From positions 1-64,000 of the IMG/VR virus record IMGVR_UViG_3300026488_000013: a stretch of 64,000 bases of DNA. One strand, 5' to 3'. The position numbers and the translations under genes were made by a program. Below are positions 7,432-39,514 of the stretch, piece by piece. The DNA is from a virus. The notes beneath the pieces were generated by a model that worked only from the letters and a program-made list of their open reading frames with translations, ran no database searches and was not told where the DNA came from. Each line of letters begins with the position of its first letter. Within the stretch, counting starts at the first letter, position 1.

Positions 7432-9348
7432 ACCGTCGCACTGTTTTTTAACATAACCGTATGCATCTACATATGTTCCGGTAATTAAAGTTGTAATATC
7501 CCATCCAATATTTTTATTTGCTGGTTCAACATTTATTATTTTTTTATAACCGTCCCTATGTAAAACTTTTTTACCTATTATTTCTTCGGACGGTTTCAAC
7601 AATTGTTTATTTTCGTCAATCAAATATTCCTTAGTAGTGGATGATATGAACTCAGTCCCATCTTCCATAATTATTTTTACCGTATTAATATTAGAATGCT
7701 CGTGCCAGAAAACAACTTTATCATAAACAAATTCATTCTTTTCCCTGTCGTATGCTAATATTTCTACTGGTTCTAATAATTCAAGAATTCTTACATGAAC
7801 TCCGTCCACTCTAGTATAGTTTTCTATTTCTCTGTGATTTACATATTTAGGTAAATCTTTAATATGGCATTTAATAAATCTATCATTATTAACTTTAACT
7901 TCTATTAAATCCCAATTGCAGTCTGCGCCGAGTGTTCCAAAGATTATTTGTGGTAATGATGCAACATACACATCTTCCTTATCGATAACTGGTTTCATTC
8001 CTATTGTTGAGTTATCATTTTCAACAGGGTGCCTTAATACTAAGACATATTTTTCATATCCATCGTATACACCATCTATGATTTCTTGCTCTAATTCAAT
8101 TAATTTTTCTTTTATTTGTTGTGGTACAGTCTTAGGATTTTTAACAATGTTATTTGTTAATTCTCTAAATGCACGGTCGGAAAATTTATCGCCTATTTGT
8201 GATTTAACCCATGTATAGATGTCAGAATATTTAGGATTTTTTGTTATATGATGAACAACGAATGGTTCATATAATTTAATTAAAAACATCCAAGGAACTT
8301 TTACTTCATTTGGTTTTAAATTTTTATCATGGGTCAAAACAAGTCTAACTGTATGGTCTAATCGTTTGGACAATTTAGCACTTCTTAATAGTTTTCCCTT
8401 TTGTCCAAAACCCAATATTCCTACTAATTCCAATGCTAATTTTTGCAACACTGGATGTATTTTTGAATAATAACTTTTTATCGGGTCTTCAGATATATCA
8501 GTCTTATTATCAGTAGCGGCACCAGAATCTGGTTCCTCATCTGATAAAAGGTTATTTAAATTCGATAAAACATTTTGAATATCTTCTGAATTGTTGTCAG
8601 ATTTATTATTTGTATTAATATCATTACCGGATTTGATAGTATGCTCTGGTTTGTTTTTATAATATAACTCCCTAATATTTTTATATTTATTTGAAATCCG
8701 TATAATTTCTTGGTATAACTGCGATATAGGGTTTTCTCTTAAAACTTTACCATCTTTAATAAATACATCTCTAAATGCGGCGGGCATTACCAAAAGTTTG
8801 TCTGTGAACAATGTATCTACTAATTCGATAAGAGTTTTTAAAATATCACCATTACCTTTGACAGTATTTACATAATTTTCCATTATCATAAATTCGTTAG
8901 TGTTTTTTTCATCCTTCAAGAAATGATAAAAATCCAGAGGGTATCTAAATTCCTTTATCGATTTTAGATTTTTCTCTTCATGAAACGGTTCTGTATAAAA
9001 TGAACCGTCTTCCATTAAATAAAACGGTTCCGATTGGAGAAATTTTTGATAAACAGATTTACCCAAAATAGAAGAAATTAATCCACCAGATACAAAATCA
9101 AATGTATATGGGTTTAAAACTGGTAAAGGTAGCTCAATATATGCAAATGTCTTTTTACGGCGGGATGAACCAATAGGTCCAAATATCTGCTCAGAATACA
9201 CTCCCTCGGGGTCTAATATTTTTTTACCACCTACTTTAATAACTGTTTTATCGGAGGTTATTTTTTTTAACTTATAACGTTTAATAAATTCGTTGTAATT
9301 TATGGGTTTTAGGTAAATTTGATTATTATTAATTTTTCCCTGTTCCAT
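7432..9348 (-). CDS. RNAP beta-prime (copy 1) exon 1, intein-containing
   Basis: DPEGVYSEQIFGP, LRSAKLSKRLDHTVRLV, LRHP, LGAD...CDG. The ORF track extension to 7330 is read-through into the intron. Confidence 0.9.
7441..7920 (-). mobile_element. 160-aa mini-intein, from Cys1 (CNWDL) to C-terminal Gln (GYVKKQ), +1 Cys
   Basis: Inserted between GAD and CDG; block F-like GWDITT..GTYVD..G; removal restores GADCDGD. Confidence 0.85.
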
Positions 9349-9606
9349 TCCTTCTTAATTTTTTTCTTAAAAAATAAGAAAAAATTTAATATTTAAAAAA
9401 TCTTCTACAGAAATAGAAAAATATGGTGGAATTGAATTTTAAAAATAAGATTCACTTGCTAATTTCAAGAAACATAATTAACATTAAAATTTTCAATATC
9501 GTTGGTATATTAGAAAGGAGGGGAAAACGGAAACAGAAATGGATTTTTGCTGTTTACACAATTAAAAAATCACAAACGTCAATTTAGCTCCTTTTTATTT
9601 TTTTAT

Positions 9607-9921
9607 AGAAAATCTGCGGGTAAAACCCTGTATCTATGGTGCAGGGATACAGCCCGACCGCCGTTAGGCGGTCGACAAATTTGAAATTTTGCATATAATT
9701 AAATTTTTAACATACCCGCCGATAGCGGGCACAAATAACAAAAATAAGCCCGCTATACCACCAACCTAAGGCGGGTATGTAGGCTAGAAGTAGCTCCACT
9801 ACCTACCTTCGGATAGGTAGGCAGGAGTAGGGGGAGCGTGAACCTCCCCGTGGTGGTAAGGCACCCCGTAGAGGGTGCAAACCCACCCGAAGCCTCGCAT
9901 CTATGATGCGGGGTAGTTCAC
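9607..9921 (+). mobile_element. ORF-less IS200/IS605-derived element (family B), copy 1, with structured RNA
   Basis: Follows TTTAT; left hairpin; TCGACA-N16-TATAAT; multiple stems; ends GAAGCCTCGCATCTATGATGCGGGGTAGTTCAC; homologous to 18232-18550. Confidence 0.85.
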
Positions 9922-15969: not shown

Positions 15970-15979
15970 TATGGATAAT
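15970..15979 (+). promoter_or_regulatory. Phage promoter-like motif TATGGATAAT
   Basis: 8 nt before ATG 15988; no SD. Confidence 0.75.
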
Positions 15980-15987
15980 AGATTTGT

Positions 15988-17379
15988 ATGAACTTTATAA
16001 ATGTGGTAAGGAAAAAGAAATTTGAAGATTATCAAAAATACCACAATGGAAAGATTACGATAGAAAATTTTAGAGAGCATGATTATAGAAGAATGGATGA
16101 ATATATTGTAAATGTGTTTGAAGATTTCCAAAATTTAACCTTAAATGGCGGCGGAAGAACGATAGAATTTGAAATAATGGATTGGTGGAAATCGGATAAA
16201 TATTTTAGCCCATATGTGGATAAAACAGTAGTGGTTGAGTATGTCATAAAAGCTAATATCAAAACCAAATCACCCAAGACTGGAGAAATAAAATCTAATA
16301 ATGAAGCTACTCTTAAAATATTGGTTCCCAAATTAATGAATAAAAAATTATTTTATCTCTATGATAACATTTATATTCCAGTATTATATATGTTCGACAA
16401 TTTTGTCCGGATATATAAGAAAGGAATAAGAATAGATTTACCATTATACGGAATAAATTTAGATTTTGAGTCTAACAAGGTAACTTTACGGAATACAAAA
16501 TATAACCGCCCGCTAAATTTGACGGTATTTTTATACTTCATATTCGATGCTCATAAAAGCGAAAAAAACTATAGAATTTTTAAAAAAATAATGTTTAAAA
16601 ATTATGCAAAATATATAAATAACTCTAAGAAAGTTTCGCAACTTATAAGAAATTTTGATAAAAATTTAAATAAATGGGTCGAAAATGAAATAGAATATTT
16701 CAGATATTATTATATGATGAATTATCTTTGGATGGTAGATGAAGATTTGAAAATATTTGACGTAAAAATGGATTTTGGGAAAATGTTGAAAAAAATAATA
16801 GATACTTATCTATTAGGTTTTAGGATAAATAAGGAGTCGTTATATAGCGAGCTCCCTAAAGACATTGTTGATGGTGGGATTAAAAAAATACTTTTTTATC
16901 TAATTAAAAATTACATAATTACGGATGAAGATATAAATCAAGATTTTATAAACAATGTTAATTTGAAAAATAGAAGAATATTGTTTCTGGAAAATATGGT
17001 GCGTCCGCTTTATTGGAACTTGTTAAGATATATAAACGCTGTGAGCAGAGATACTAAATACGGATTTGAAATAGCGGATATAATTTATGATGGAAGCATT
17101 GTAAATGAATTCGTTTCTTCTCAGATAAAAAGATACAAAGGAAAATACTTATGGGATTTTCCTACCCCATATTGTGGTGTGCGAGCAGCCCAAATATTAA
17201 ATTATGATGGGGACGAAGATAAAATAAATTTAGATACAAGATTATTGCATGATTCTCAGTATAACATAATATGTCCTATTGCTACATCCAGTTCGCACCC
17301 GGGAATAGTTTTACATACTGTGCCGGAAACACCCCTAGATAAATATGGCCATTTTGTGGAAAAATTTGAAAAATATTAA
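15988..17379 (+). CDS. Phage RNA polymerase beta subunit, N-terminal fragment
   Basis: C-terminal RLLHDSQYNIICPIATSSSHPG matches RpoB RDVHxSHYGRICPIETPEGPN; N-terminal ILVPKL...FYLYDNIYIP. Confidence 0.75.
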   Translation: MNFINVVRKKKFEDYQKYHNGKITIENFREHDYRRMDEYIVNVFEDFQNLTLNGGGRTIEFEIMDWWKSDKYFSPYVDKTVVVEYVIKANIKTKSPKTGEIKSNNEATLKILVPKLMNKKLFYLYDNIYIPVLYMFDNFVRIYKKGIRIDLPLYGINLDFESNKVTLRNTKYNRPLNLTVFLYFIFDAHKSEKNYRIFKKIMFKNYAKYINNSKKVSQLIRNFDKNLNKWVENEIEYFRYYYMMNYLWMVDEDLKIFDVKMDFGKMLKKIIDTYLLGFRINKESLYSELPKDIVDGGIKKILFYLIKNYIITDEDINQDFINNVNLKNRRILFLENMVRPLYWNLLRYINAVSRDTKYGFEIADIIYDGSIVNEFVSSQIKRYKGKYLWDFPTPYCGVRAAQILNYDGDEDKINLDTRLLHDSQYNIICPIATSSSHPGIVLHTVPETPLDKYGHFVEKFEKY

Positions 17380-17454
17380 TTAGGCATATATAAACGTTTC
17401 CTTCCATATTAATTTTTGAAAGTTAAAGAAAAAGAATATGGATAATTAAAAAGT

Positions 17455-17661
17455 ATGAGGAAAAATGAGGTTTTTATGAGCTTGTGGGAAGCGATTGAAG
17501 ACTATTGTGAACGACATAATGCTCATCCATATGAGGTGAAATACATTATTCATAAAAAACCATGGTTCGATGGCGATACATACCAAATAAAAATTGGAAT
17601 AGAAAAAGACGGAGAAATATTCCTCCAAGATATAGAATATTATGAAGTTGAAGAGATTTGA
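17455..17661 (+). CDS. Small hypothetical protein
   Basis: Promoter motif 17437-17446 at 8 nt. Confidence 0.7.
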   Translation: MRKNEVFMSLWEAIEDYCERHNAHPYEVKYIIHKKPWFDGDTYQIKIGIEKDGEIFLQDIEYYEVEEI

Positions 17662-26811: not shown

Positions 26812-27279
26812 TTAAGCAATAACACGAAATATTCTGTTTTTTTTAATCAAATCAAACAATTTATAATTAATGTTATCATGACTGTCTTTCACAAATTTTT
26901 TAACCGACATAGCATAAGAATTCGTTGAATTAATATAGATTGTCATCATTTTATCTGTATAACTAACAATAGCGGTTATCATGGTTCCCAAACCCGGTAA
27001 ATTTAAATCCATTCTTATATTATCATTATACTCAAGAGAAATTATTATTTCTTTTTTAATTATGGCCGCCTTTGTTCTCTTGTAATTCAATTTAATATCA
27101 CTACTATTTATAAAATGGTCAAAATTTCGAATAAAATCATCTAAAATTTTAGATATAAGTTCAATTATATCTTCCCATTTGACATAACATTTAAATTCTA
27201 TTACATCTCCTAAATCTTTAAATGTTTTAGGAGTTATATTATCAAATGTATTTTTAAGGGTTTCGTAGTTCTTTTCCAA
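26812..27279 (-). CDS. Hypothetical protein
   Basis: 155-aa ORF with TTG start. Confidence 0.6.
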   Translation of the reverse strand: MEKNYETLKNTFDNITPKTFKDLGDVIEFKCYVKWEDIIELISKILDDFIRNFDHFINSSDIKLNYKRTKAAIIKKEIIISLEYNDNIRMDLNLPGLGTMITAIVSYTDKMMTIYINSTNSYAMSVKKFVKDSHDNINYKLFDLIKKNRIFRVIA

Positions 27280-27336: not shown

Positions 27337-29052
27337 TTAAATAGGAAACTTCCATTCATCTTGGTTGAAAGATAGTTCCGATAATTTGGGACCTATTGGT
27401 GATTGTCTTCTTTTAAATTCATATTTTAGAATTCTTTTGTTTATACTAGTTATTCTTCTTTCTTTTATTAACATAATTAAATGTCTATCTAAAGTTTCAT
27501 ATGTTGCACCAAGTTGTTCTTCGTCACTTATGTCATTTACAAATAATTCGGCAGTAGGTTTTCTTTTTATTATAAATCTAGGCACACCTAAATACTCGGC
27601 TAATCCAAATACTTCAGTTTTTAATATATCTTTGAGCGGGGCATATCCACCTTCGCTATCCCCACCTAAAGTATAATACCCATATGCCAATTCAGTTTTA
27701 TTACTACATGTTAGTAATATAGCATTCAATTCGTTGGCTTTTGTTAGTAAGAAATTAGCTCTTAATCTCGCTTGCAAGTTTGCCAACGCAATTATTTCAT
27801 TTATGTTAAACAGGTTTTTGGAATTATTAAATATTTCCGTTAAATCGACGGTCTCAATACTAACACCTGAATCCTTTTTTATAATTTCTATCGCTCTATA
27901 AGTTTCATCTTTAGTAAATGGTCTTATAGGCAGAAAATATGCATGTATGTTAATGTTAGGAATATCTTTTATTAGATATAAAACGGTAGCACTATCTATT
28001 CCTCCGGATATACCGATAATAACGTCTTTAAATCCTGTTTTCATCAAATATGTTTCTATATTGTTTCTAATAACTCTAGCGTATTGTTCATATTTCGTTT
28101 GTTTAGTATTTATAGTATAGGAGTTTAGCTTAGATATATATTCACTTCTAATTATATCATCGTTTGTAGTATCATATGTTTCATAACAATACCCCATTAC
28201 AGGTTTATTGGGTTTAACATCTTTTATTAATTCGTCCACATTTTTTACAATCTTTTCATATTCGCTATTTTGAATATTTAAAATTTTACTCCGATAAATC
28301 GAATTCTTATATAAAGCTAAATATTTTATATTTTCAATCACATTTCCATCTTCGGTTATAAAGAAACTATTTCCATCAAATGTCACCTCGTCGAAAGTGC
28401 CACTATAATTAACATAGAGTAAAGGAACGTTAACGTCTTTAACGTATTCAATAAACATTTTAATTTTATTTTCAAGCTTCCCATATTCATACGGGCTGGC
28501 ATTTAAAGAAATTATTAAGTCAATTTTTCCCTCGCTATTTATCATTTCTTTCCAATTTTCGAAATACCATCCATCTTCACAGATTAATACCCCGATGTTA
28601 AAACCTTTGATATTCAATACCCCATATGGTTTACCATCATGAGACGAAAAGTATCTTTTCTCATTAAATACTCCATAATTCGGTAGGTATTTTTTTACAC
28701 CAAGTATTTTATTGCTTCTTAACAACACGGACGCATTAACTAGGGCGCCGTTATTTAAAAATAACGGAAGAGTTGTTAAAACTTCAGTTTTATGATTATC
28801 ATATAAAAATTTTAATACTTCATCTCTGAACTTTTTATTAAGTTTTTCCACCTCCTCGGGATACAGATATATATCCTTTATATAGTATCCAGTACTTGCC
28901 AATTCGGGTAAAACAACTAAATCGGGTTTATAACAAACATAATCAGTTATAGTAACTCCACCAAATTTAAATACTGGATGAAATTTTGGGATGAAAATTT
29001 CCAATGTGTTATTAGTTGCCTTGGTTTTAGTTCCAACCTTGTATTCGACCAT
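27337..29052 (-). CDS. nadE: Glutamine-dependent NAD+ synthetase
   Basis: CN-hydrolase triad motifs (LPEL, KKYLPNYGVFNEKRYF, LICED) plus GISGGIDS, NLQARLR, NKTE..GYYT.GGD and PTAEL. Confidence 0.95.
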   Translation of the reverse strand: MVEYKVGTKTKATNNTLEIFIPKFHPVFKFGGVTITDYVCYKPDLVVLPELASTGYYIKDIYLYPEEVEKLNKKFRDEVLKFLYDNHKTEVLTTLPLFLNNGALVNASVLLRSNKILGVKKYLPNYGVFNEKRYFSSHDGKPYGVLNIKGFNIGVLICEDGWYFENWKEMINSEGKIDLIISLNASPYEYGKLENKIKMFIEYVKDVNVPLLYVNYSGTFDEVTFDGNSFFITEDGNVIENIKYLALYKNSIYRSKILNIQNSEYEKIVKNVDELIKDVKPNKPVMGYCYETYDTTNDDIIRSEYISKLNSYTINTKQTKYEQYARVIRNNIETYLMKTGFKDVIIGISGGIDSATVLYLIKDIPNINIHAYFLPIRPFTKDETYRAIEIIKKDSGVSIETVDLTEIFNNSKNLFNINEIIALANLQARLRANFLLTKANELNAILLTCSNKTELAYGYYTLGGDSEGGYAPLKDILKTEVFGLAEYLGVPRFIIKRKPTAELFVNDISDEEQLGATYETLDRHLIMLIKERRITSINKRILKYEFKRRQSPIGPKLSELSFNQDEWKFPI

Positions 29053-29097
29053 CCTACAATACCTCCATTCGAAAAAGTAAATTAGAGAAAGATATAT

Positions 29098-29643
29098 TTA
29101 AAAAATTATTTCAAATTGCTTATCAAATTTATCCTTCAATTTTTTATACAATTTTCTTGCCTCATTGTCATTAATACTTTTGATTTTATCAATATGAAGG
29201 AATACTTTGTATCCGTTTATTAGTCCTTGTAATGCAGTCCAATAAACACAGTAATCCCCGGCAACACCCACAATATGAAGTTCTTTTATTCCTCTCAATT
29301 TTAAAATCTTATCCAAACACGGCTCTCCTTCAAATGCACCATAATTCTCAAAATCATACATCCCTTTTTTAATAAATACACTATCTGCAGGTTTAGGTAT
29401 ATCCACAACGATTTCGGCTCCCTTGGTATTCTGAATACAATGTTCTGGCCATTGGTTAAAAATTTTACTATCTTTCTTATGCCAATCTTGTGTATAAATA
29501 ATCAGCTGATTTTCATTGACAAACTGATGGATAAGGTTATTAATAGGTTCTATTAAATTTTCTGCGTTTAAAACATAAAGCGAACCATTAGGATTGACAA
29601 AATCATACTGCATATCGACAACGATTAAAGCTTTATCGAACAT
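29098..29643 (-). CDS. pncA: Nicotinamidase
   Basis: VDMQYDF..GSL, QDWH, WPEHC, KKG, GVAGDYCV. Confidence 0.92.
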   Translation of the reverse strand: MFDKALIVVDMQYDFVNPNGSLYVLNAENLIEPINNLIHQFVNENQLIIYTQDWHKKDSKIFNQWPEHCIQNTKGAEIVVDIPKPADSVFIKKGMYDFENYGAFEGEPCLDKILKLRGIKELHIVGVAGDYCVYWTALQGLINGYKVFLHIDKIKSINDNEARKLYKKLKDKFDKQFEIIF

Positions 29644-29665
29644 TTTACATCACCTCCGTTTATTA

Positions 29666-30640
29666 TTAAAAATTTTCTTCGACAAATTTAATCAGTTTAA
29701 AATGGGACTCGAATCTAAATAGTCTTTTATTTTTGTCATAAATGTTTTTCAATTCTTTGAAACTAAATTTTAATATGTTTGATACCTCATTCACATCCTT
29801 AAAATTACCCATATTTGCTGAATTATCTACATATACCAAATACGGAATTACGGTAACCATATTTATCTCGACAAAAGGAGCCAGTTGGTTATGTTCTATA
29901 ATATCATTTCTACACAAACCCAATTCTTCTTCCAGTTCCTTAAATAACACCTTTTCTATTGAATGCTCATCTATAAAGCCTCCGGGCAATGCAATTGTAT
30001 TTGTCGGTTTGTGTTTTATCATTATATATTCGCCGGTATCTATATTCTTAACTACCGCCAAAACAGCACTCAGAGCAACATTATCAGGTAATGTTATATA
30101 TCTCGGATTTTTTATAAGTTTTTCTTTTATTCTATTTCTTATTAAAGTTCCACTATAAAAATGTTTAAATTCATCATTTATTTCAATACAATTATATTCC
30201 AAGATTATTTCGTCTCCAAATATTTTTGTAACTTCTTTATTATTCCTCTTTATCACAATTATGTTTTTAGTTCTTAGAACATCTTTAAGTCTATCGAAAT
30301 TCTTCCATTGATTAATCGTATTGTATGAATCACTACCAAACAGAATGTCTGTTACATAACTTTTATTTTTGATTAAATGATAAAAACTTTCATCATAAGA
30401 TACATCAACATGTACCTTATCTAAAATTTCGGATTTATACCCTTCAACCATATCATAGATTAAATTTCTAATAAATTCGGGGGCAAACATCCTTTTGTGA
30501 TTCCTATATTTATAATTATGAATCACTATTTCTATATTATCATATTTAAATTTATTTATAGCGGAAAATAAAATACAAAGATGAGATAAATGAAAAGGGT
30601 CAAAAGTTCCGGCAAACAGCAGTGTTCTTTCATTTCCCAT
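29666..30640 (-). CDS. nadD: Bifunctional NaMN/NMN adenylyltransferase-Nudix hydrolase
   Basis: GTFDPFHLSH, GSD..W and SGTLIR, plus a Nudix-like PGG...KELEEELG. Confidence 0.85.
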   Translation of the reverse strand: MGNERTLLFAGTFDPFHLSHLCILFSAINKFKYDNIEIVIHNYKYRNHKRMFAPEFIRNLIYDMVEGYKSEILDKVHVDVSYDESFYHLIKNKSYVTDILFGSDSYNTINQWKNFDRLKDVLRTKNIIVIKRNNKEVTKIFGDEIILEYNCIEINDEFKHFYSGTLIRNRIKEKLIKNPRYITLPDNVALSAVLAVVKNIDTGEYIMIKHKPTNTIALPGGFIDEHSIEKVLFKELEEELGLCRNDIIEHNQLAPFVEINMVTVIPYLVYVDNSANMGNFKDVNEVSNILKFSFKELKNIYDKNKRLFRFESHFKLIKFVEENF

Positions 30641-30659
30641 TCTAAAACCTCCTTTCTTT

Positions 30660-31745
30660 TTAATACACAGCAGTATCGTTGGGAAAGGGACTTAATTTAG
30701 GTTTCAATTTGTTTTCGATATAATCATAGTATTTAACTCCCTCTATTTGTTTTTTACCAGGAGCTAATTTTTTGACAGGTATCCATTTTCCATTTTTATA
30801 AATTCCTGTGAGTTTGTATACAATGGACAATGGCTTTGTATTGTTAACTATTTGTGTTCCTCCCGCAATACCTATTACTTTGTTCCGATATTCTTCCTCC
30901 AAATTTTCACCTACATATTTCACTTTGTCAATATCATAATCGCCAGATAAAATATATTTAACATCTATTAGAGTATTTATTTTCGCTATCTCTTTAATAA
31001 GTTCAACGTGGTCACCAGAATCTAATCTAATCTTTACGCCTCTAATCTTATTAGGGTCAAGAACAGGTAATAGTTTTTTCAACAGCACTATAGTGTCTAT
31101 AGTATCTGGTAAGATTGTATCTGTCAGGTTATTTTCTAATAAATACTTCCATAATTGAACCTCATTTTCATACTCACCGCTGAATAAACCATATTGAATG
31201 AATGCATGAGGCAATGTTCCCGTAATTTTTTCACTATATTTATCATACAGCATCATATTAGAAGTCAAATACCCTAATTTTGCAGCTATTTCCGAAATTC
31301 TGTATGCTAATTTAATATCGGGTGCTCGCCTTAAACCAAATTCTAATACTTTAGCACGTGGGAAATATTTTTTAATCACATTTTTAAATTCCAATAGTCG
31401 TGTAGTATAAAATAGTTCTCTTTGTGTTACATTCAATAATAAACTTTCCAATACTATAGGTTCTAATCCATGTCCAATTACTTGAATAATAGGTTGAAAT
31501 TCTTTTACCTCCATCAATCCTTTATTTTTATATTTTCCCAATATCCGAATTTCGAACTTATCATTCACATCATAAAAATATTTATTTAGAGTTTCTTCTA
31601 TTACAGTCGGAAAATCTGGCGATGTGTAATATTTTCCTTTGCGTATAAAGAGTGTGAAGCAAGTTTTGTATTGATTTTGAAACACAACCTTAGAAATATT
31701 CCTTGTGAACATATGATAGAAATCCATTGGATTGTATTGGTTCAT
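30660..31745 (-). CDS. pncB: Nicotinate phosphoribosyltransferase
   Basis: EFGLRRA, TSN, GTLPHAF, DT.D, IRLDSGD and VYKL, which fit the NAPRT type rather than NAMPT. Confidence 0.85.
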   Translation of the reverse strand: MNQYNPMDFYHMFTRNISKVVFQNQYKTCFTLFIRKGKYYTSPDFPTVIEETLNKYFYDVNDKFEIRILGKYKNKGLMEVKEFQPIIQVIGHGLEPIVLESLLLNVTQRELFYTTRLLEFKNVIKKYFPRAKVLEFGLRRAPDIKLAYRISEIAAKLGYLTSNMMLYDKYSEKITGTLPHAFIQYGLFSGEYENEVQLWKYLLENNLTDTILPDTIDTIVLLKKLLPVLDPNKIRGVKIRLDSGDHVELIKEIAKINTLIDVKYILSGDYDIDKVKYVGENLEEEYRNKVIGIAGGTQIVNNTKPLSIVYKLTGIYKNGKWIPVKKLAPGKKQIEGVKYYDYIENKLKPKLSPFPNDTAVY

Positions 31746-31753
31746 ACTTATTC

Positions 31754-31763
31754 ATTATCCATA
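31754..31763 (-). promoter_or_regulatory. Promoter-like motif TATGGATAAT heading the NAD operon
   Basis: 8 nt before the pncB ATG. Confidence 0.75.
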
Positions 31764-31791: not shown

Positions 31792-32112
31792 TTATAATAC
31801 AGTATTTATATACTCATTTATCTTTAATTTCACAAATTTACCAAGCTGCGAATCGCATTTAATTATGGTTTCCCATTTATCTTTTATTAATATTTTTATA
31901 ACTTCTTTTCTAACTTTCTCGCAAAAAGGATTTTTAAATTTTATTTTATTTAAAAATTTGTAAAAAGCACATATGTTATAATCTTCTACAGGTGAGGAAC
32001 TTTTAAACAAATGAACTAATAACATTACATTTATATATTCCTCTATTTTATCTTCCGATAATCCCTTTATAGTTATCAAATTTATTTCTCTAATACAATC
32101 TGTATAGCCCAT
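31792..32112 (-). CDS. Hypothetical protein
   Basis: Promoter motif 32121-32130. Confidence 0.65.
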   Translation of the reverse strand: MGYTDCIREINLITIKGLSEDKIEEYINVMLLVHLFKSSSPVEDYNICAFYKFLNKIKFKNPFCEKVRKEVIKILIKDKWETIIKCDSQLGKFVKLKINEYINTVL

Positions 32113-32263
32113 GCACTTTTATTATCCGTATAAATTAATCTAACAACAAAAAAATAATGTTAATATGATATATATAATATATTAAACTGTGTTTATCTTT
32201 AAAAATTAAAACTCGACATTTATGGATATAATAAAGTAACAAAAAGACTTTGGAGGTGGAAAA

Positions 32264-32567: not shown

Positions 32568-32979
32568 TTAAATTGAAATACATTTCGAATATTTTTGCGG
32601 ATATTTTTTATCTATCATTGTTTTAATCTCTTTTATTTCTTTAATTAATTTTTCAATGACTTCAATGATTTTTTGTGGCTCCATAGGAACATTATATTTG
32701 AATTCCTCATCGAAATATATGAGGTCAATATTTTCTTCTTTATACTTAATACCTAATCCTGTTGAAAACCTTTTATCTATTTTAATACTTTTCTCGATGC
32801 ACTTTTTTAACAATCCATTCAATTATCGGATGAATAAAGTCTCTGAATTTCCTTCTACATAATTCGCAATCTATTTTCCCAGTGATTTCTATAGTGTCAA
32901 TTTCTTTTTTGTTTTTAATACATCTCAAAATAGCTCTATAATCCGAATAATTTTCCCTAACTATTTCGATTTCTAGCAT
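32568..32979 (-). pseudogene. Hypothetical gene, possibly frameshifted (ORFs 32782-32979 and 32568-32822)
   Basis: First part has the promoter motif at 32988-32997; second part overlaps it, starts TTG and has no RBS. Confidence 0.4.
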
Positions 32980-33046
32980 ACTGTTCTATTATCCGTATTT
33001 GAATTTGAAAATTTAAAACACACTATGAAGAATAAGAGTAAAACTA

Positions 33047-34788: not shown

Positions 34789-35211
34789 TTATTTTATTAT
34801 TATTCCATATCCGTTTATTGTCTCATATCCATTATATCCTTTAATAAAATATTCAACAATACCACAAATTTGAATTACTAATAATTTAGGTATAATTATT
34901 CTTTTGTTTTCATCGTCTATTTTAATTATTACATCATCAATTGTAATATCATTATTTAATTCTATTATTTTTCTCCCACATTTTTTACATCTTATAATTG
35001 ATTTTATCATATTTGGAACCTCATCTAATTCATCAGCTATCAACGAACCTGCTGAGCAGTTGTATTCACCAACAGTTTCGTCATCGTCAATGTCTTCATT
35101 TTCTAAATCTATTGTTTTCTTTCCTTTATATTTCATACAATATACTTCTTCATAATATGTTTCAATTTCATTTATTTCTTTACATTTCGGACAATAAAAC
35201 ATTTTCTCCAT
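34789..35211 (-). CDS. Zn-ribbon protein (paralog of 22898-23338)
   Basis: YCPKC...RCKKCG; promoter motif 35220-35229. Confidence 0.7.
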   Translation of the reverse strand: MEKMFYCPKCKEINEIETYYEEVYCMKYKGKKTIDLENEDIDDDETVGEYNCSAGSLIADELDEVPNMIKSIIRCKKCGRKIIELNNDITIDDVIIKIDDENKRIIIPKLLVIQICGIVEYFIKGYNGYETINGYGIIIK

Positions 35212-35325
35212 GTTATATAATTATCCGTATTTAGTTAAAAAAAATGCAGCTTATGAAGTTATTTTAATTCGCTTATTTTAATTAACTCTGGCTACAAGTT
35301 TTTTATCTCAATAAGAAAATTAAAA

Positions 35326-37341
35326 TTATTTAAAAAATTCTATCCACAGGGAAATTGTTATAACAATTGGTTTATTACTTTTGAAATACTCTAGTATTTC
35401 ATCTTTACTTATCTTGACAAATTTACCGTTAATATATAAATGCGGCGCCGCCTTTGCATCAAAAATAACATTAAAATTTGGGATTATGGGTTTTAAATTA
35501 TTCAACCTTCCGGATATTGCAAACTTAATATTCGGTTTAGAAATTATTTCTTTTAGTAATTCTTTAATCTTTCTAATACACTTTGTATATATGTTGTTAA
35601 CAATTAAATCTTTCCTAATTGTTTGTCTTACAATAGTTGCAGTATCATTTTCAATATTAACCCGAACTATATAAGACATTGCTAAATTTCCGCCTTTATC
35701 ATATCCATTTAATACATACAAATTTCTCCCCTTTTTAAAGAACGCACCGGTTAGATTATTAACTTCATGGAATTTAATCATATCCTCAGACGCTTCGTAT
35801 TCACCAATCTCAAAATACAATTCATCACATGAGATTATTTTGAATAATTCGGATAACAATTTCTGATTTTTAGTTTCTTTTAAAATATACCGTATAATCA
35901 AATTTTTCCATAATTCCTTTTTATGTTCATTTTTCCATTCAGCATCAAATATTTTAAATGTTCGCATTTTATTTTTTCTTTCGAATTTTAGTTTAACATC
36001 AGCTCTCTTTAACAATGTTTCTAAAACTTCAATTGTATTGGCGCCGTATTTATCCGCCCACAGTGTTGAGTGCCAAAATATACTATCATATTCTACTGCC
36101 AATTTTAATTCGGGAATGTATAAATCCCAGCTATAAGTTTTATTCCCAATAACAAATTTCTTTTCCGAGACGAATGTTAAATTAAATTGTTTTCCTATTA
36201 TTTCCTTAATAGTATCGGTTATTTCTGCAATTACTAAATTTTGTTCAACTGATTTTCCTTTAGAGATTTTTTTCATGCAAATTGGACAACCGAATAATTC
36301 CTCCGGCATGGCATTAAAAACTTTCCATTTATAAAAATTTTCCAAACTTAATGGTCTATATTTCGTATAAGTTATTCCATGGCGATTACATTTCATTTTA
36401 ACCGATTTACCATAATATCGTTTAATGTAATCTAAAATATTTTTTATATTTATAAATTTGTATCCATTTTTTAATGCATATTCATATAACAGCTTATCAA
36501 ATTTAATTAACTCATCCGCAGGAACATTATATTTATCTAACAGTTCAGAAACAATTTTCCTATGTTTTACAGAATTAACCAATTTGGGGTTGAGAACTTT
36601 GTTAGAGATTAACAATTTCTTTCTTAGTTCGATTATTTTATCGTAAGAATTTCTATTCTCTCTCATTTTGACAGATTTAATTTTTCTTATATGTTCAGAG
36701 TTATTTGGGTTATTTTCTCTAAAATATTTAGTGGTTTGTTCGATATATTTTTTATAATAATCTGGGAAAAATATTTTAACGGGATAATTTTTAATTTTCT
36801 TATAACAGCCGCCGCAGGAATAATCGAGTATATACCTGTTAAATCTAGAAATATTTCTTCCGCATATTTTACATCTATATTTTTCCTTATTTTCTATCCT
36901 ATCAATAAAAGTATCCGTAAGCATCAAATATATCAAATGTCTAACGGTGAATTTCTTGCCAGAAATAAAATTTTTTCTTATTTTTGTCAGCACTTCTCTA
37001 TTAATATTAAATTGTTTTAATATCTTTTCCAATTCGTCAATATCTAAAGCACTTAATGAATTTTTATTCGCCTCGTAATTTGAAATTTCTGGATTGATTT
37101 CTCTTTCAATAAATGAATAGTATTTTTTAAATAAAAATTTTGGCGTAATAATAAAAGCACCGCAGGTTTCACATAGAATTTTTTCTTTATTTATGAATGT
37201 ATTTCTATCAATTTTTAATTCAGCACCACAATCCCAACAACTAATTTTATAAGACATAGGGAATTTCAATTCTTTAGGATGAAGTATCTCTAACTCATCC
37301 ATTTTATTTAACTCTTTCGTCAGCTTTCTCTCTTCCACCAT
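35326..37341 (-). CDS. Free-standing homing endonuclease (Hef/Vsr-like)
   Basis: Multiple CxxC, CNRHG, and WDLYIPELKLAVEYDSIFWH; related to 1061-3133; promoter motif 37350-37359. Confidence 0.7.
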   Translation of the reverse strand: MVEERKLTKELNKMDELEILHPKELKFPMSYKISCWDCGAELKIDRNTFINKEKILCETCGAFIITPKFLFKKYYSFIEREINPEISNYEANKNSLSALDIDELEKILKQFNINREVLTKIRKNFISGKKFTVRHLIYLMLTDTFIDRIENKEKYRCKICGRNISRFNRYILDYSCGGCYKKIKNYPVKIFFPDYYKKYIEQTTKYFRENNPNNSEHIRKIKSVKMRENRNSYDKIIELRKKLLISNKVLNPKLVNSVKHRKIVSELLDKYNVPADELIKFDKLLYEYALKNGYKFINIKNILDYIKRYYGKSVKMKCNRHGITYTKYRPLSLENFYKWKVFNAMPEELFGCPICMKKISKGKSVEQNLVIAEITDTIKEIIGKQFNLTFVSEKKFVIGNKTYSWDLYIPELKLAVEYDSIFWHSTLWADKYGANTIEVLETLLKRADVKLKFERKNKMRTFKIFDAEWKNEHKKELWKNLIIRYILKETKNQKLLSELFKIISCDELYFEIGEYEASEDMIKFHEVNNLTGAFFKKGRNLYVLNGYDKGGNLAMSYIVRVNIENDTATIVRQTIRKDLIVNNIYTKCIRKIKELLKEIISKPNIKFAISGRLNNLKPIIPNFNVIFDAKAAPHLYINGKFVKISKDEILEYFKSNKPIVITISLWIEFFK

Positions 37342-37365
37342 ATTTAAAAATTATCCATAAAGGTA

Positions 37366-37464: not shown

Positions 37465-39411
37465 TTAATGCGGATTTAGATGTAATATGATGGAACTCAT
37501 ATCCGCAAATTCAATAATGACACGGGCTTGCGAAACGCTATCACCATCATAATCAGCGTTAAAACTTTCAACTATCAATGGGTGTATTTTTAAAGTATAA
37601 TCTTCTTTATTAGTATTTATTTTTGCATCGTAAACTATCATCGATGGCTCCCATAGAGTTGGTTGCCTATTTATAAAGGAATATAGTTTTATTCTTCCTT
37701 TATTAACATTATACGCAAACAAATCGAACAGAAATTCTATATCTTCCAATATTTGTTCATCCGTTATATCCAGCTCTTTGGGGCTTTTTGCACCATATTC
37801 TAATTCCTGATATATCAGTTTTATTAAATATGTAAAATATTTACCATTATCTTTTAATTTGATTTTATTTAATTTCTTAATCATCGATTTCGGTGCGACA
37901 GGTTTCTGAACTATTACATCACATGGAGTAAACTTTTTATATTTAAATAGTGTATATAATCTTCTAAGAAATATCAAAAATTCCATTTTGAATATTTGTC
38001 TGGCTGTATAATATGAAACCAATATTTCATATGGTTTAACCTCTAATGTTGGAGTAATTACATTTCTGGCGGAAAAATCTATAGTTTTTCCTATTAGAAA
38101 CTGTCTCACCAAACCTTCCTTTTTACCTAATTCGGAATCTAATAATTTTGAGACATATTTTATATACCATTGTTGAAGTAAATTAACTTGTCGTTCCTGC
38201 GTAAATATTTCTGGTATGGTTAGATTTTCTAAGTTTTTATCCAGATATTCTTTATTTTCTTGACAATATTCAAATAATGTATAGACGCCGCCGTGGTGTG
38301 CGTATCTGTAATAATACTCTGAATATTGATTATAAGTTATAAACGGTTTATAAATAAACCTATCAAATTGGCTAGAAATTTGTTCGGTATTTGTTTCATG
38401 ATTTTTTTTACCATCTGAAGTGGGAATGTTTATAGATACAGATAACTTATGAGGATTATCTGTTAATTTCTCAAATTTCTCATTCATTATCACTATTTGT
38501 GTTAATATTCTATCATAATCACTTCTATATAATTCGTCCCCCACTATCATAAATTTTCTAAGCTCCGCAGTTATCACCGGAATAATTATAGTTATCGAAT
38601 TTATCAAGTGTGTAGGGTATTTAAATTTTAGAATATATTCGTTAAAAATTTCTTCGTTAGACAATATCGCATATATCAATGTATATAAACCGAACGCAGG
38701 TTTTGATAAAACATAGGTGTCCTTATAATATTCCCAAGTATATTTTTCATTATCTTTAATTAGGTCATATTGTAATGCAAATTCGTAAAATTTATTGAAA
38801 AAATCCTTATAACTGGTTTCTGCTATTAATTCTTCATACTTTTCCTTTATTTTATTATTTCCGCTTATTAGATAAAACTTTATTCCTTCGGGCGGCTCAA
38901 ATCTTTTCTTTTTTCTATTAAACAGCAAAAATTGATAATCTAAAATTATTTTATTCATTAATGACATAAATGTTTGTTTTCCGCCTTTTAATATTCGGTA
39001 TATCTCGCTGAGTATCAACGGATTAAATACAGGATAATTTAAATTTATAAATCCGTGATTTCTGGAGATATTTTGTTTATAATCCATTACTACGCCGCAA
39101 ACTTTGCATTTCTTTCCATATCCCCTTGTTAAACCACACAAACAAGTTTTGGAAGTAGTTCCGAATATAGACCACGAATGCAATCCTTTAGGGTTAGGTA
39201 TATTTTTACCAAATCTCTTTTCAATATTTTCTACTATTTTATCTTTGAGTGTAGGGTCTTTTATTTTCTCAAAAAACTCCAATTCATTAACATCTTCTAT
39301 TAATATCTTCGAAGATTTTATTATCTTGCTCGATTCATATTTCTTATATGGGTTAGAAAACAATGAATATAGGAGCTCTAACTTTTCCAACTTAGTTTCA
39401 AATTCCATCAT
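37465..39411 (-). CDS. RNAP beta-prime (copy 2) N-terminal part, ending in an intein-like tail
   Basis: GLHSWSIFG, CLCG..CKVC zinc domain, GKTIDFSARNVI, NRQPTL and FNADYDGD, then 24 aa and a stop; promoter motif 39420-39429. Confidence 0.92.
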   Translation of the reverse strand: MMEFETKLEKLELLYSLFSNPYKKYESSKIIKSSKILIEDVNELEFFEKIKDPTLKDKIVENIEKRFGKNIPNPKGLHSWSIFGTTSKTCLCGLTRGYGKKCKVCGVVMDYKQNISRNHGFINLNYPVFNPLILSEIYRILKGGKQTFMSLMNKIILDYQFLLFNRKKKRFEPPEGIKFYLISGNNKIKEKYEELIAETSYKDFFNKFYEFALQYDLIKDNEKYTWEYYKDTYVLSKPAFGLYTLIYAILSNEEIFNEYILKFKYPTHLINSITIIIPVITAELRKFMIVGDELYRSDYDRILTQIVIMNEKFEKLTDNPHKLSVSINIPTSDGKKNHETNTEQISSQFDRFIYKPFITYNQYSEYYYRYAHHGGVYTLFEYCQENKEYLDKNLENLTIPEIFTQERQVNLLQQWYIKYVSKLLDSELGKKEGLVRQFLIGKTIDFSARNVITPTLEVKPYEILVSYYTARQIFKMEFLIFLRRLYTLFKYKKFTPCDVIVQKPVAPKSMIKKLNKIKLKDNGKYFTYLIKLIYQELEYGAKSPKELDITDEQILEDIEFLFDLFAYNVNKGRIKLYSFINRQPTLWEPSMIVYDAKINTNKEDYTLKIHPLIVESFNADYDGDSVSQARVIIEFADMSSIILHLNPH

Positions 39412-39514
39412 CTAATTCTATTATCCGTAATTGAAATATAAAGTAATAATGATAATTGTTGGCAAGTAATTCAAATAAAAAATAAAATTTGAAAACAAAA
39501 AGTATTTCGTTTAA

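Follow-up and report, generated by a model that had tools for sequence, protein, structure and literature searches.

Several phage pathways that rebuild the nicotinamide adenine dinucleotide (NAD+) pool have been described. NAD+ reconstitution pathway 1 (NARP1), made up of Adps and Namat, and NARP2, made up of the Nampt and Nmnat of phage KVP40, overcome the Thoeris, DSR, and SIR2-HerA defences, with Thoeris and DSR2 being the systems that NARP2 defeats, and phages carry other NAD salvage genes as well (bioRxiv 10.1101/2024.02.11.579819). A third pathway, NARP3, consists of PnuC and NadR and counters Sir2-HerA (PMC13464706). In addition, 174 jumbo phages have been reported with complete salvage or Preiss-Handler pathways, including pncB-nadD-nadE clusters, and phage pncA is mentioned in the same work (Li et al., 2024, Microbiome; PMC11662467). 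Here, we describe a four-gene region at positions 27337-31763 of the first 64 kb (hereafter, the window) of the IMG/VR virus record IMGVR_UViG_3300026488_000013, a linear record of 167,050 bp that CheckV estimates to be ~60% complete. Judging from its sequence, the region is probably a phage-encoded operon, read as a single transcript, that supplies a full deamidating route of nicotinamide salvage and would hold up the NAD+ of the infected cell.

The four open reading frames (ORFs) are co-oriented on the minus strand with intergenic gaps of 19, 22, and 45 nt, and the limits of the region coincide exactly with the nadE stop codon and with the 5′ end of a 21-nt motif preceding gene 1 (Table 1). 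The original prediction had named them as pncB, a nadD-Nudix fusion, pncA, and a glutamine-dependent nadE, and ORF positions, Pfam and NCBIfam matches, and catalytic motifs bear this out, with the motifs being intact in all four proteins for every motif examined. The chemistry that it had proposed, leading from nicotinamide through nicotinate, nicotinate mononucleotide (NaMN), and nicotinate adenine dinucleotide (NaAD) to NAD+, is likewise backed by gene identities, motifs, and predicted folds. PncA would convert nicotinamide to nicotinate, and the short NAPRT-type enzyme would join nicotinate to phosphoribosyl pyrophosphate (PRPP), forming NaMN, probably with ATP stimulation by way of a phosphorylated His180. 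The NadD-type domain would then adenylate NaMN to NaAD, which the two-domain NadE would convert to NAD+, with glutamine as the source of the channelled ammonia. The Nudix domain, most likely, would split ADP-ribose into AMP and ribose-5-phosphate, and host Prs could return the latter to PRPP. The likelihood that genes for four consecutive pathway steps came together by chance is negligible, and the set also recurs elsewhere.

How this locus relates to the described systems depends on which of its features are compared. Like NARP2 of Vibrio phage KVP40, in which Nampt acts with a bifunctional Nmnat-Nudix, it would carry out classical salvage from nicotinamide and PRPP and holds an adenylyltransferase-Nudix fusion. 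NARP2, however, is an amidated route of two enzymes (nicotinamide to nicotinamide mononucleotide (NMN) to NAD+), whereas in the window the phosphoribosyltransferase (PRTase) is NAPRT-like, the adenylyltransferase is NadD-type and not NadM-type, and PncA and NadE add two steps. NARP1 and NARP3 likewise let phages restore NAD+ in the face of NADase defences, but they differ from the window operon in working through ADP-ribose pyrophosphate (ADPR-PP) and nicotinamide riboside uptake, respectively, and none of their genes turned up here. The NAD-jumbo phages carry the same kind of clustered deamidated-route genes on a large phage, such as the pncB-nadD-nadE cluster of Kuafu_71, known from sequence alone (PMC11662467). 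In comparison with those clusters, the window operon includes PncA, so that the route begins at nicotinamide, together with a NadD-Nudix fusion and a short, divergent NAPRT, and it lies on a record of 167,050 bp at the estimated completeness given above, the NAD-jumbo size limit being 200 kb for a full genome. Since Shine-Dalgarno sites are used, the host is probably not one of the Bacteroidota, the predicted hosts of the Kuafu clade. Finally, the bacterial PncA-PncB-NadD-NadE salvage route shares all four reactions, the catalytic motifs, and the folds; the window set differs in being phage-borne as one operon, in having a NadD fused to a Nudix domain, and in having a NAPRT that lacks PF17956.

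The PRTase looks NAPRT-like rather than NAMPT-like by sequence and modelled fold. Its Pfam match, to PF04095, is weak (23.6 bits), and nine NCBIfam nicotinate PRTase models match it (best E 3.6e-20), all far under their cut-offs, with zero NAMPT models matching in NCBIfam and zero NAMPT homologues among its sequence relatives. The motifs it carries are D8-x-Y10 (canonical TDxY), FGLRRAP at 136-142, an ATSN-type loop (T161-S162-N163), RLDSGD at 240-245, and GTLPHAF with H180, which is equivalent to GTLAHSF, the phospho-histidine motif of human NAPRT. Lacking the C-terminal NAPRT domain PF17956, it falls in a small clade of short (350-400 aa) metagenome proteins that are 36-74% identical, of which P0006 and P0007 are closest (72-74%); outside this clade, the only relatives are canonical NAPRTs of 450-490 aa at ~25-32% identity. 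The public gene call for this protein (P0005, 350 aa) begins at Met12, 11 codons late, and loses the conserved D8/Y10/H11. The ATG at 31745 is the better start, as it is coupled to the motif and keeps these residues.

By fold, the AlphaFold2 model of the PRTase (predicted local distance difference test (pLDDT) 89) comes closest to E. faecalis NAPRT 4MZY (Z 24.4, 21% identity), followed by the Pyrococcus NAPRT-like protein 2I14 (Z 22.3, 22% identity) and bacterial NAMPTs (Z 21.7-22.4, 15-16% identity). This shared fold, with NAMPTs only about 2 Z under NAPRT, and the weak Pfam match would both suit a NAMPT-like or Namat-like enzyme that uses nicotinamide with PRPP or ADPR-PP, in which case the cassette would be a hybrid of NARP2 and NARP1. 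All of the sequence relatives and NCBIfam matches are NAPRTs, however, and an alignment with NadV from the annotated KVP40 record reveals that the ~20-residue insert bearing GTDT in NadV is absent from the phage PRTase, as it is from all NAPRTs. We take this GTDT motif to carry the Asp that selects nicotinamide in NAMPT; when NAMPT Asp219 was placed on the PRTase using MAFFT and HHalign, the loop alignment was ambiguous, and the claim is limited to the absence of the insert. A PRPS-like Adps is missing from the operon, and a six-frame search of the partial 167-kb record gave no PF13793 match, although these searches are soft for weak domains, having missed PF00293 in the record where hmmscan scores the Nudix domain of the NadD-Nudix protein at 25.6 bits. 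Moreover, only a deamidated product would explain why PncA and NadE share an operon with the PRTase, both in the window and in the related metagenome contig described below (L003). We consider a NAMPT-like or Namat-like enzyme very improbable, and the PRTase, as originally proposed, does not appear to be NARP2-like.

PncA is an isochorismatase-fold protein (PF00857, E 1e-24) that matches nicotinamidase PRK11609, and its D10/K93/C132 triad and metal ligands D53/H55/H68 align with those of its closest structure, P. horikoshii PncA 1IM5 (E 1e-35). NadE combines CN_hydrolase (PF00795) and NAD_synthase (PF02540) domains and matches NAD+ synthase PRK13981 at E 1e-90, with the glutamine-dependent enzyme of A. 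baumannii, 5KHA, as its closest structure (E 3.5e-54). The glutaminase motifs PELxxxGY, LPNYGVFxEKRYF, and ICED are retained, including the alignment-invariant E50, K120, and C158, as is the PP-loop SGGIDS at 349-354. Its identity to any protein is ≤38%, apart from one metagenome relative (P0217, 57%).

The second gene encodes a CTP_transf_like domain that matches nadD models in NCBIfam, followed by a NUDIX domain (PF00293), while NadM-Nudix NCBIfam models give marginal matches (E 3e-4 to 7e-4). The adenylyltransferase motifs are GTFDPFHLSH at 11-20, within which FHLSH (16-20) is HxGH-like, and SGTLIR at 163-168 (SxTxxR). In the structural model (pLDDT 90.7), the N-terminal domain matches S. 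aureus NadD 2H29 (Z 15.4) and B. subtilis 1KAQ, and from both sequence and modelled fold, this domain is of the bacterial NadD type and not the archaeal NadM type. Proteins with both halves are few, as an HMMER search of 1.8 billion representatives returned three proteins spanning both domains at E <1e-10 (P0126-P0128), then ~90 weak matches, nearly all NadD-sized. When both domains are considered together, the best fold matches are the NadM-Nudix proteins of Synechocystis (slr0787, 2QJO) and Francisella (2QJT/2R5W), which follow the same two-domain logic but have an archaeal NadM N-terminus and a different domain orientation (root-mean-square deviation (rmsd) about 15-17 Å).

These whole-protein matches raise the question of whether the steps could run in the Francisella order, with NMN, made by NadE through amidation of NaMN, serving as the substrate from which the adenylyltransferase forms NAD+, for the same net result. 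In three other viral loci described below (L019, L020, and L038), the adenylyltransferase accompanying PncB, PncA, and NadE is a true NadM-Nudix of the NMN type, which also favours this order. For the window, in contrast, sequence and fold both place the adenylyltransferase domain with NadD, and NadE carries a glutaminase domain of the kind typical of enzymes that amidate NaAD; the single-domain Francisella NMN synthetase 3FIU matches NadE less well than 5KHA does (E 1.3e-20 versus 3.5e-54). The Francisella order therefore seems improbable here, and amidation of NaAD is the preferred last step.

In the Nudix domain, the box at 220-242 reads G-x5-H-x7-K-E-L-E-E-E-L-G-L, keeping K234-E235-L-x-E238-E239-x-G-L, and is conserved in the relatives P0125-P0128 (P0125 and P0126 at 59%). 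Because the REUxEE glutamates are retained and the box is conserved, the domain is predicted to be active, unlike the degenerate boxes of NrtR regulators. A sequence search of the PDB returned for it only the ADPRase half of NadM-Nudix 2QJO, and by fold it comes closest to the ADP-ribose-bound NrtR Nudix domain 3GZ8 (Z 17.3, rmsd 1.7 Å). In a second viral NadD-Nudix (L037), the models matched by the Nudix half are those of NadM-Nudix and of ADPR-responsive repressors (E 1e-15 to 1e-22). On this sequence and fold evidence, ADP-ribose is the best guess for the substrate. Two features speak against it: the box is atypical, with His and Lys replacing the first Glu and Arg, and fold scores are near-tied over many subfamilies (Z 14-17), such that NudC, NUDT12, Dcp2, and Ap4A hydrolases come within 2-3 Z of the top match. 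The domain might instead hydrolyse NADH, dinucleoside polyphosphates, RNA capped with NAD, or an immune signal derived from ADPR; on the last of these, a 2026 preprint reports phage proteins that degrade ADPR-based Thoeris signals (10.64898/2026.05.28.727677). Given the 2QJO, NrtR, and L037 matches, we judge such a substrate rather unlikely and keep ADP-ribose as the working assignment.

The expression signals fit a single transcript. The motif before gene 1 belongs to a series, TAYGGATAAT-N8-ATG, with 14 matches (≤1 mismatch) in the window versus 0.83 expected from shuffles; the copies span 474-39429 on both strands, and their spacing to the ATG is fixed. The motif is always directed into a gene and precedes the first genes of blocks that have no Shine-Dalgarno site, fronting non-structural genes, including an RNA polymerase subunit gene, and not the structural block. 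Since its GATAAT core ends 8 nt before the ATG, it can be read as a −10-like element with the transcript start at or next to the start codon, and from sequence it is probably a promoter class that gives a leaderless or very-short-leader mRNA. Gene 1 has no Shine-Dalgarno site, genes 2-4 each have one, and inside the four genes there is no second motif copy and no terminator-like hairpin. The arrangement foreseen for this operon, a single promoter motif with ribosome binding sites on the internal genes, is hence what the region contains. Through this promoter class, the operon would probably be turned on with the non-structural genes of the phage. A sigma-70 promoter scan was uninformative (61 sites versus 53 expected), as was a terminator scan.

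Table 1. Coordinates of the NAD+ operon, its expression signals, and related features (window positions unless stated otherwise)
Feature	Position	Strand	Remarks
Gene 1, short NAPRT-type nicotinate phosphoribosyltransferase (PncB analogue)	30660-31745	-	361 aa
Gene 2, NadD-Nudix fusion	29666-30640	-	324 aa
NadD-type NaMN adenylyltransferase domain	30083-30640	-	aa 1-186 of gene 2
Nudix hydrolase domain, candidate ADP-ribose pyrophosphatase	29669-30082	-	aa 187-324 of gene 2
Gene 3, PncA nicotinamidase	29098-29643	-	181 aa
Gene 4, glutamine-dependent NadE	27337-29052	-	571 aa
NadE glutaminase domain	about 28153-29052	-	
NadE synthetase domain	about 27340-28152	-	
Start motif TATGGATAATGAATAAGTATG before gene 1	31743-31763	-	form TATGGATAAT-N8-ATG; putative promoter
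Shine-Dalgarno AAGGAGG of nadD-Nudix	30648-30654	-	7 nt before ATG
Shine-Dalgarno GGAGGTG of pncA	29651-29657	-	7 nt before ATG
Shine-Dalgarno GGAGGT of nadE	29061-29066	-	8 nt before ATG
Further start motif copies (examples)	32110-32130, 32977-32997, 35209-35229, 37339-37359, 39409-39429	-	
Start motif copies (examples)	474-494, 15970-15990, 17437-17457	+	
Downstream co-oriented ORF, possible fifth gene	26812-27279	-	155 aa, TTG start; operon membership uncertain
ORFs of the LR756501.1 island	5002-13475 of L010 (418000-435000)	-	NAPRT (406 aa), orf170, NH3-type NadE, TonB-dependent receptor, orf205, PnuC, NadR-like, orf116, PncA-like

The operon proteins are ~20-35% identical to cellular enzymes, with the nearest cellular NadE and NAPRT at ~30%, and the GC content of the operon (29.4%) is close to that of the genome (28.2%). 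The lack of a close cellular relative and the genome-like GC content argue against a recent acquisition from a host. An origin in host DNA or in a chimeric assembly could be considered, since IMG/VR records can include host flanks, and one of the loci surveyed below (L018) has a NAPRT that scores like a cellular gene. In this record, though, the neighbours of the operon are phage genes (split multisubunit RNA polymerase subunits, HNH/homing endonucleases, a helicase, TerL, and a UvsX-like recombinase), and the operon bears the start motif and GC content of the phage itself. We regard a non-phage origin as extremely improbable.

Directly beyond the operon, the 155-aa downstream ORF and a 106-aa upstream ORF have zero matches in Pfam, NCBIfam, or PHROG, and for the former ESM Atlas yields only unnamed clusters (≤0.82). 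A AAGGAGGG site follows the nadE stop codon, and the first candidate ATG, GTG, or TTG of the 155-aa ORF lies 23 nt downstream of it, too far for a normal Shine-Dalgarno site. Either the start codon of this ORF is unusual, or the site serves something else.

Relatives of the cassette are divergent. A megablast search of the region against 50,697 phage records gave no match, the PRTase had a single weak tblastn match among phage records, and IMG/VR scans with the PRTase or NadD-Nudix as single proteins found no relatives, so that alignment-based scans were needed. A 4.7-kb metagenome contig (L003) carries pncA-nadE-nadD-shortPRT, co-oriented and in a different gene order, with identities to the window of 28% for PncA, 34% for NadE, 23% for NadD, and 37% for the PRTase. 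Because L003 holds the same functions in a divergent, reordered form, the linkage of these genes appears to be old and selected. In a related phage of 147-162 kb (L001/L002), the short PRTase stands beside a topoisomerase gene, without the other genes of the set, and a NadD-like gene lies elsewhere. A strong NadD-like match in the related 147-kb record (L006, G001:C1:77790-78314; E 2e-28) contains one in-frame TGA, interpretable as a disrupted gene, a pair of genes, or recoding.

A survey of phage genomes, which had been suggested as a check on the cassette, was carried out by scanning IMG/VR with a NadE alignment, giving 30 viral loci whose ORFs were then searched with HMMs (hidden Markov models) built for the survey. 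The four-function set recurs, as it does in L003: a PRTase, an adenylyltransferase, PncA, and NadE are co-oriented within ±7 kb in 9 of the 30 NadE loci, on contigs of 47-578 kb, a count that is too high by one, as the fourth match of L028 is an NrtR-like Nudix regulator and not an adenylyltransferase. In L023, the fourth match has only a Nudix domain in Pfam. Several further NadE loci hold three of the four functions, and some of the surveyed loci may include host flanks. The fusion in L029 and L037 is, as in the window, NadD-type plus Nudix. In L019, L020, and L038 (70, 578, and 152 kb), a true NadM-Nudix occurs with canonical PncB, PncA, and NadE, a combination that would work only with a NadM of dual specificity or with an NMN synthetase step like that of Francisella. 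The L028 regulator (8814-9647 of that locus, IMGVR_UViG_3300045988_170943, 420 kb) is of the NrtR type, with Nudix and NrtR winged-helix domains, and lies directly after PRT-NadE-PncA, a placement that hints at regulation of a phage NAD operon through ADP-ribose sensing, or else at a host flank.

A published phage genome, the 735-kb ‘uncultured phage’ LR756501.1, has an unannotated NAD island on one strand at about 423-431.5 kb (Table 1). Like the window, it holds NAPRT, NadE, and PncA-like genes on one strand, but its NAPRT is a canonical one of 406 aa, its NadE is single-domain and NH3-type, and it adds PnuC, a NadR-like protein, and a TonB-dependent receptor while having no NadD-Nudix. A phage-encoded TonB-dependent outer-membrane receptor within an NAD salvage and uptake island is odd.

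We now consider what the operon would do for the phage. In an infected cell, the predicted outcome is an NAD+ pool that is raised or kept steady. The TIR, SIR2, and SEFIR NADases release nicotinamide and ADP-ribose, the very compounds that the operon would take in, and it would thus be expected to blunt NAD+-depleting defences in the manner of NARP2 and NARP3. From our analysis, we put the chance of a measurable rescue of a phage facing an NADase system at somewhat short of even. The fuller proposal is a tentative one, on the doubtful side: that the four-enzyme deamidating route works as a fourth type of system by which phages reconstitute NAD+, in which NadD-Nudix couples ADP-ribose breakdown, towards PRPP, to resynthesis from nicotinamide, and that the operon, expressed early from a leaderless promoter, can overcome TIR, SIR2, and SEFIR NADases.

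Several points weigh against these readings. For all four proteins, the evidence base consists of sequence and predicted structure, and as all of them score far below the curated NCBIfam cut-offs, their specificities could have drifted. Each NAD+ made by this route would cost PRPP, glutamine, and two to three ATP (the ATP of NAPRT being facultative), and its speed may be insufficient, because most hosts run the same route yet do not withstand NADase effectors. Also, no nadE or pncA was found near the L001/L002 PRTase or anywhere in that partial record.

A purely metabolic role is the main alternative for the biology of the operon. In this case, it would be an auxiliary operon that tops up NAD+ for a long, costly infection or in a host that lacks salvage, with no evolved anti-NADase role. 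Such clusters have been read as a general NAD+ supply that complements host pathways (PMC11662467), and NARP2 raises NAD+ even without a defence system (bioRxiv 10.1101/2024.02.11.579819). The route is also PRPP-using and always on, unlike NARP1, and no recognized anti-Thoeris or other NAD-related gene was found beside the operon. On the other hand, a start from nicotinamide together with an ADP-ribose-type Nudix domain corresponds exactly to both NADase products, and no NAD+-dependent ligase that would create a special phage demand was found in six-frame family searches of the partial record, which likewise returned no Macro domain and, as in the operon itself, no match to the PnuC family of NARP3 (PF04973). 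A metabolic role alone is rather unlikely, though it deserves weight. As far as sequence goes, the operon may have evolved against NADase defences or for general supply, and the two roles are compatible.

The original prediction had presented the operon as a new, third route, and this part does not hold. NARP3 already occupies that place (PMC13464706), phage Preiss-Handler clusters and pncA were published in 2024 (PMC11662467), and the four-function set is found in many large viral contigs. Full-text literature searches turned up no study in which a phage nicotinamidase or the deamidated route is tested as a counter-defence. What is new here is the architecture, namely the NadD-type Nudix fusion, the short NAPRT clade, and the leaderless-type promoter, while the principle has appeared in print before and is widespread among large phages. 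The value of the locus is that of a clean, testable example and a variant architecture, not of a new principle, and it offers compact, divergent enzymes for biochemistry in the 361-aa NAPRT and the NadD-Nudix fusion.

NAD+ depletion is among the commonest of bacterial anti-phage strategies, and the three phage pathways for rebuilding NAD+ that have been proven experimentally include none that is deamidated. If cassettes such as this one work, the commonest bacterial salvage route would also be a phage weapon, and the survey suggests that it is present in many large phages.

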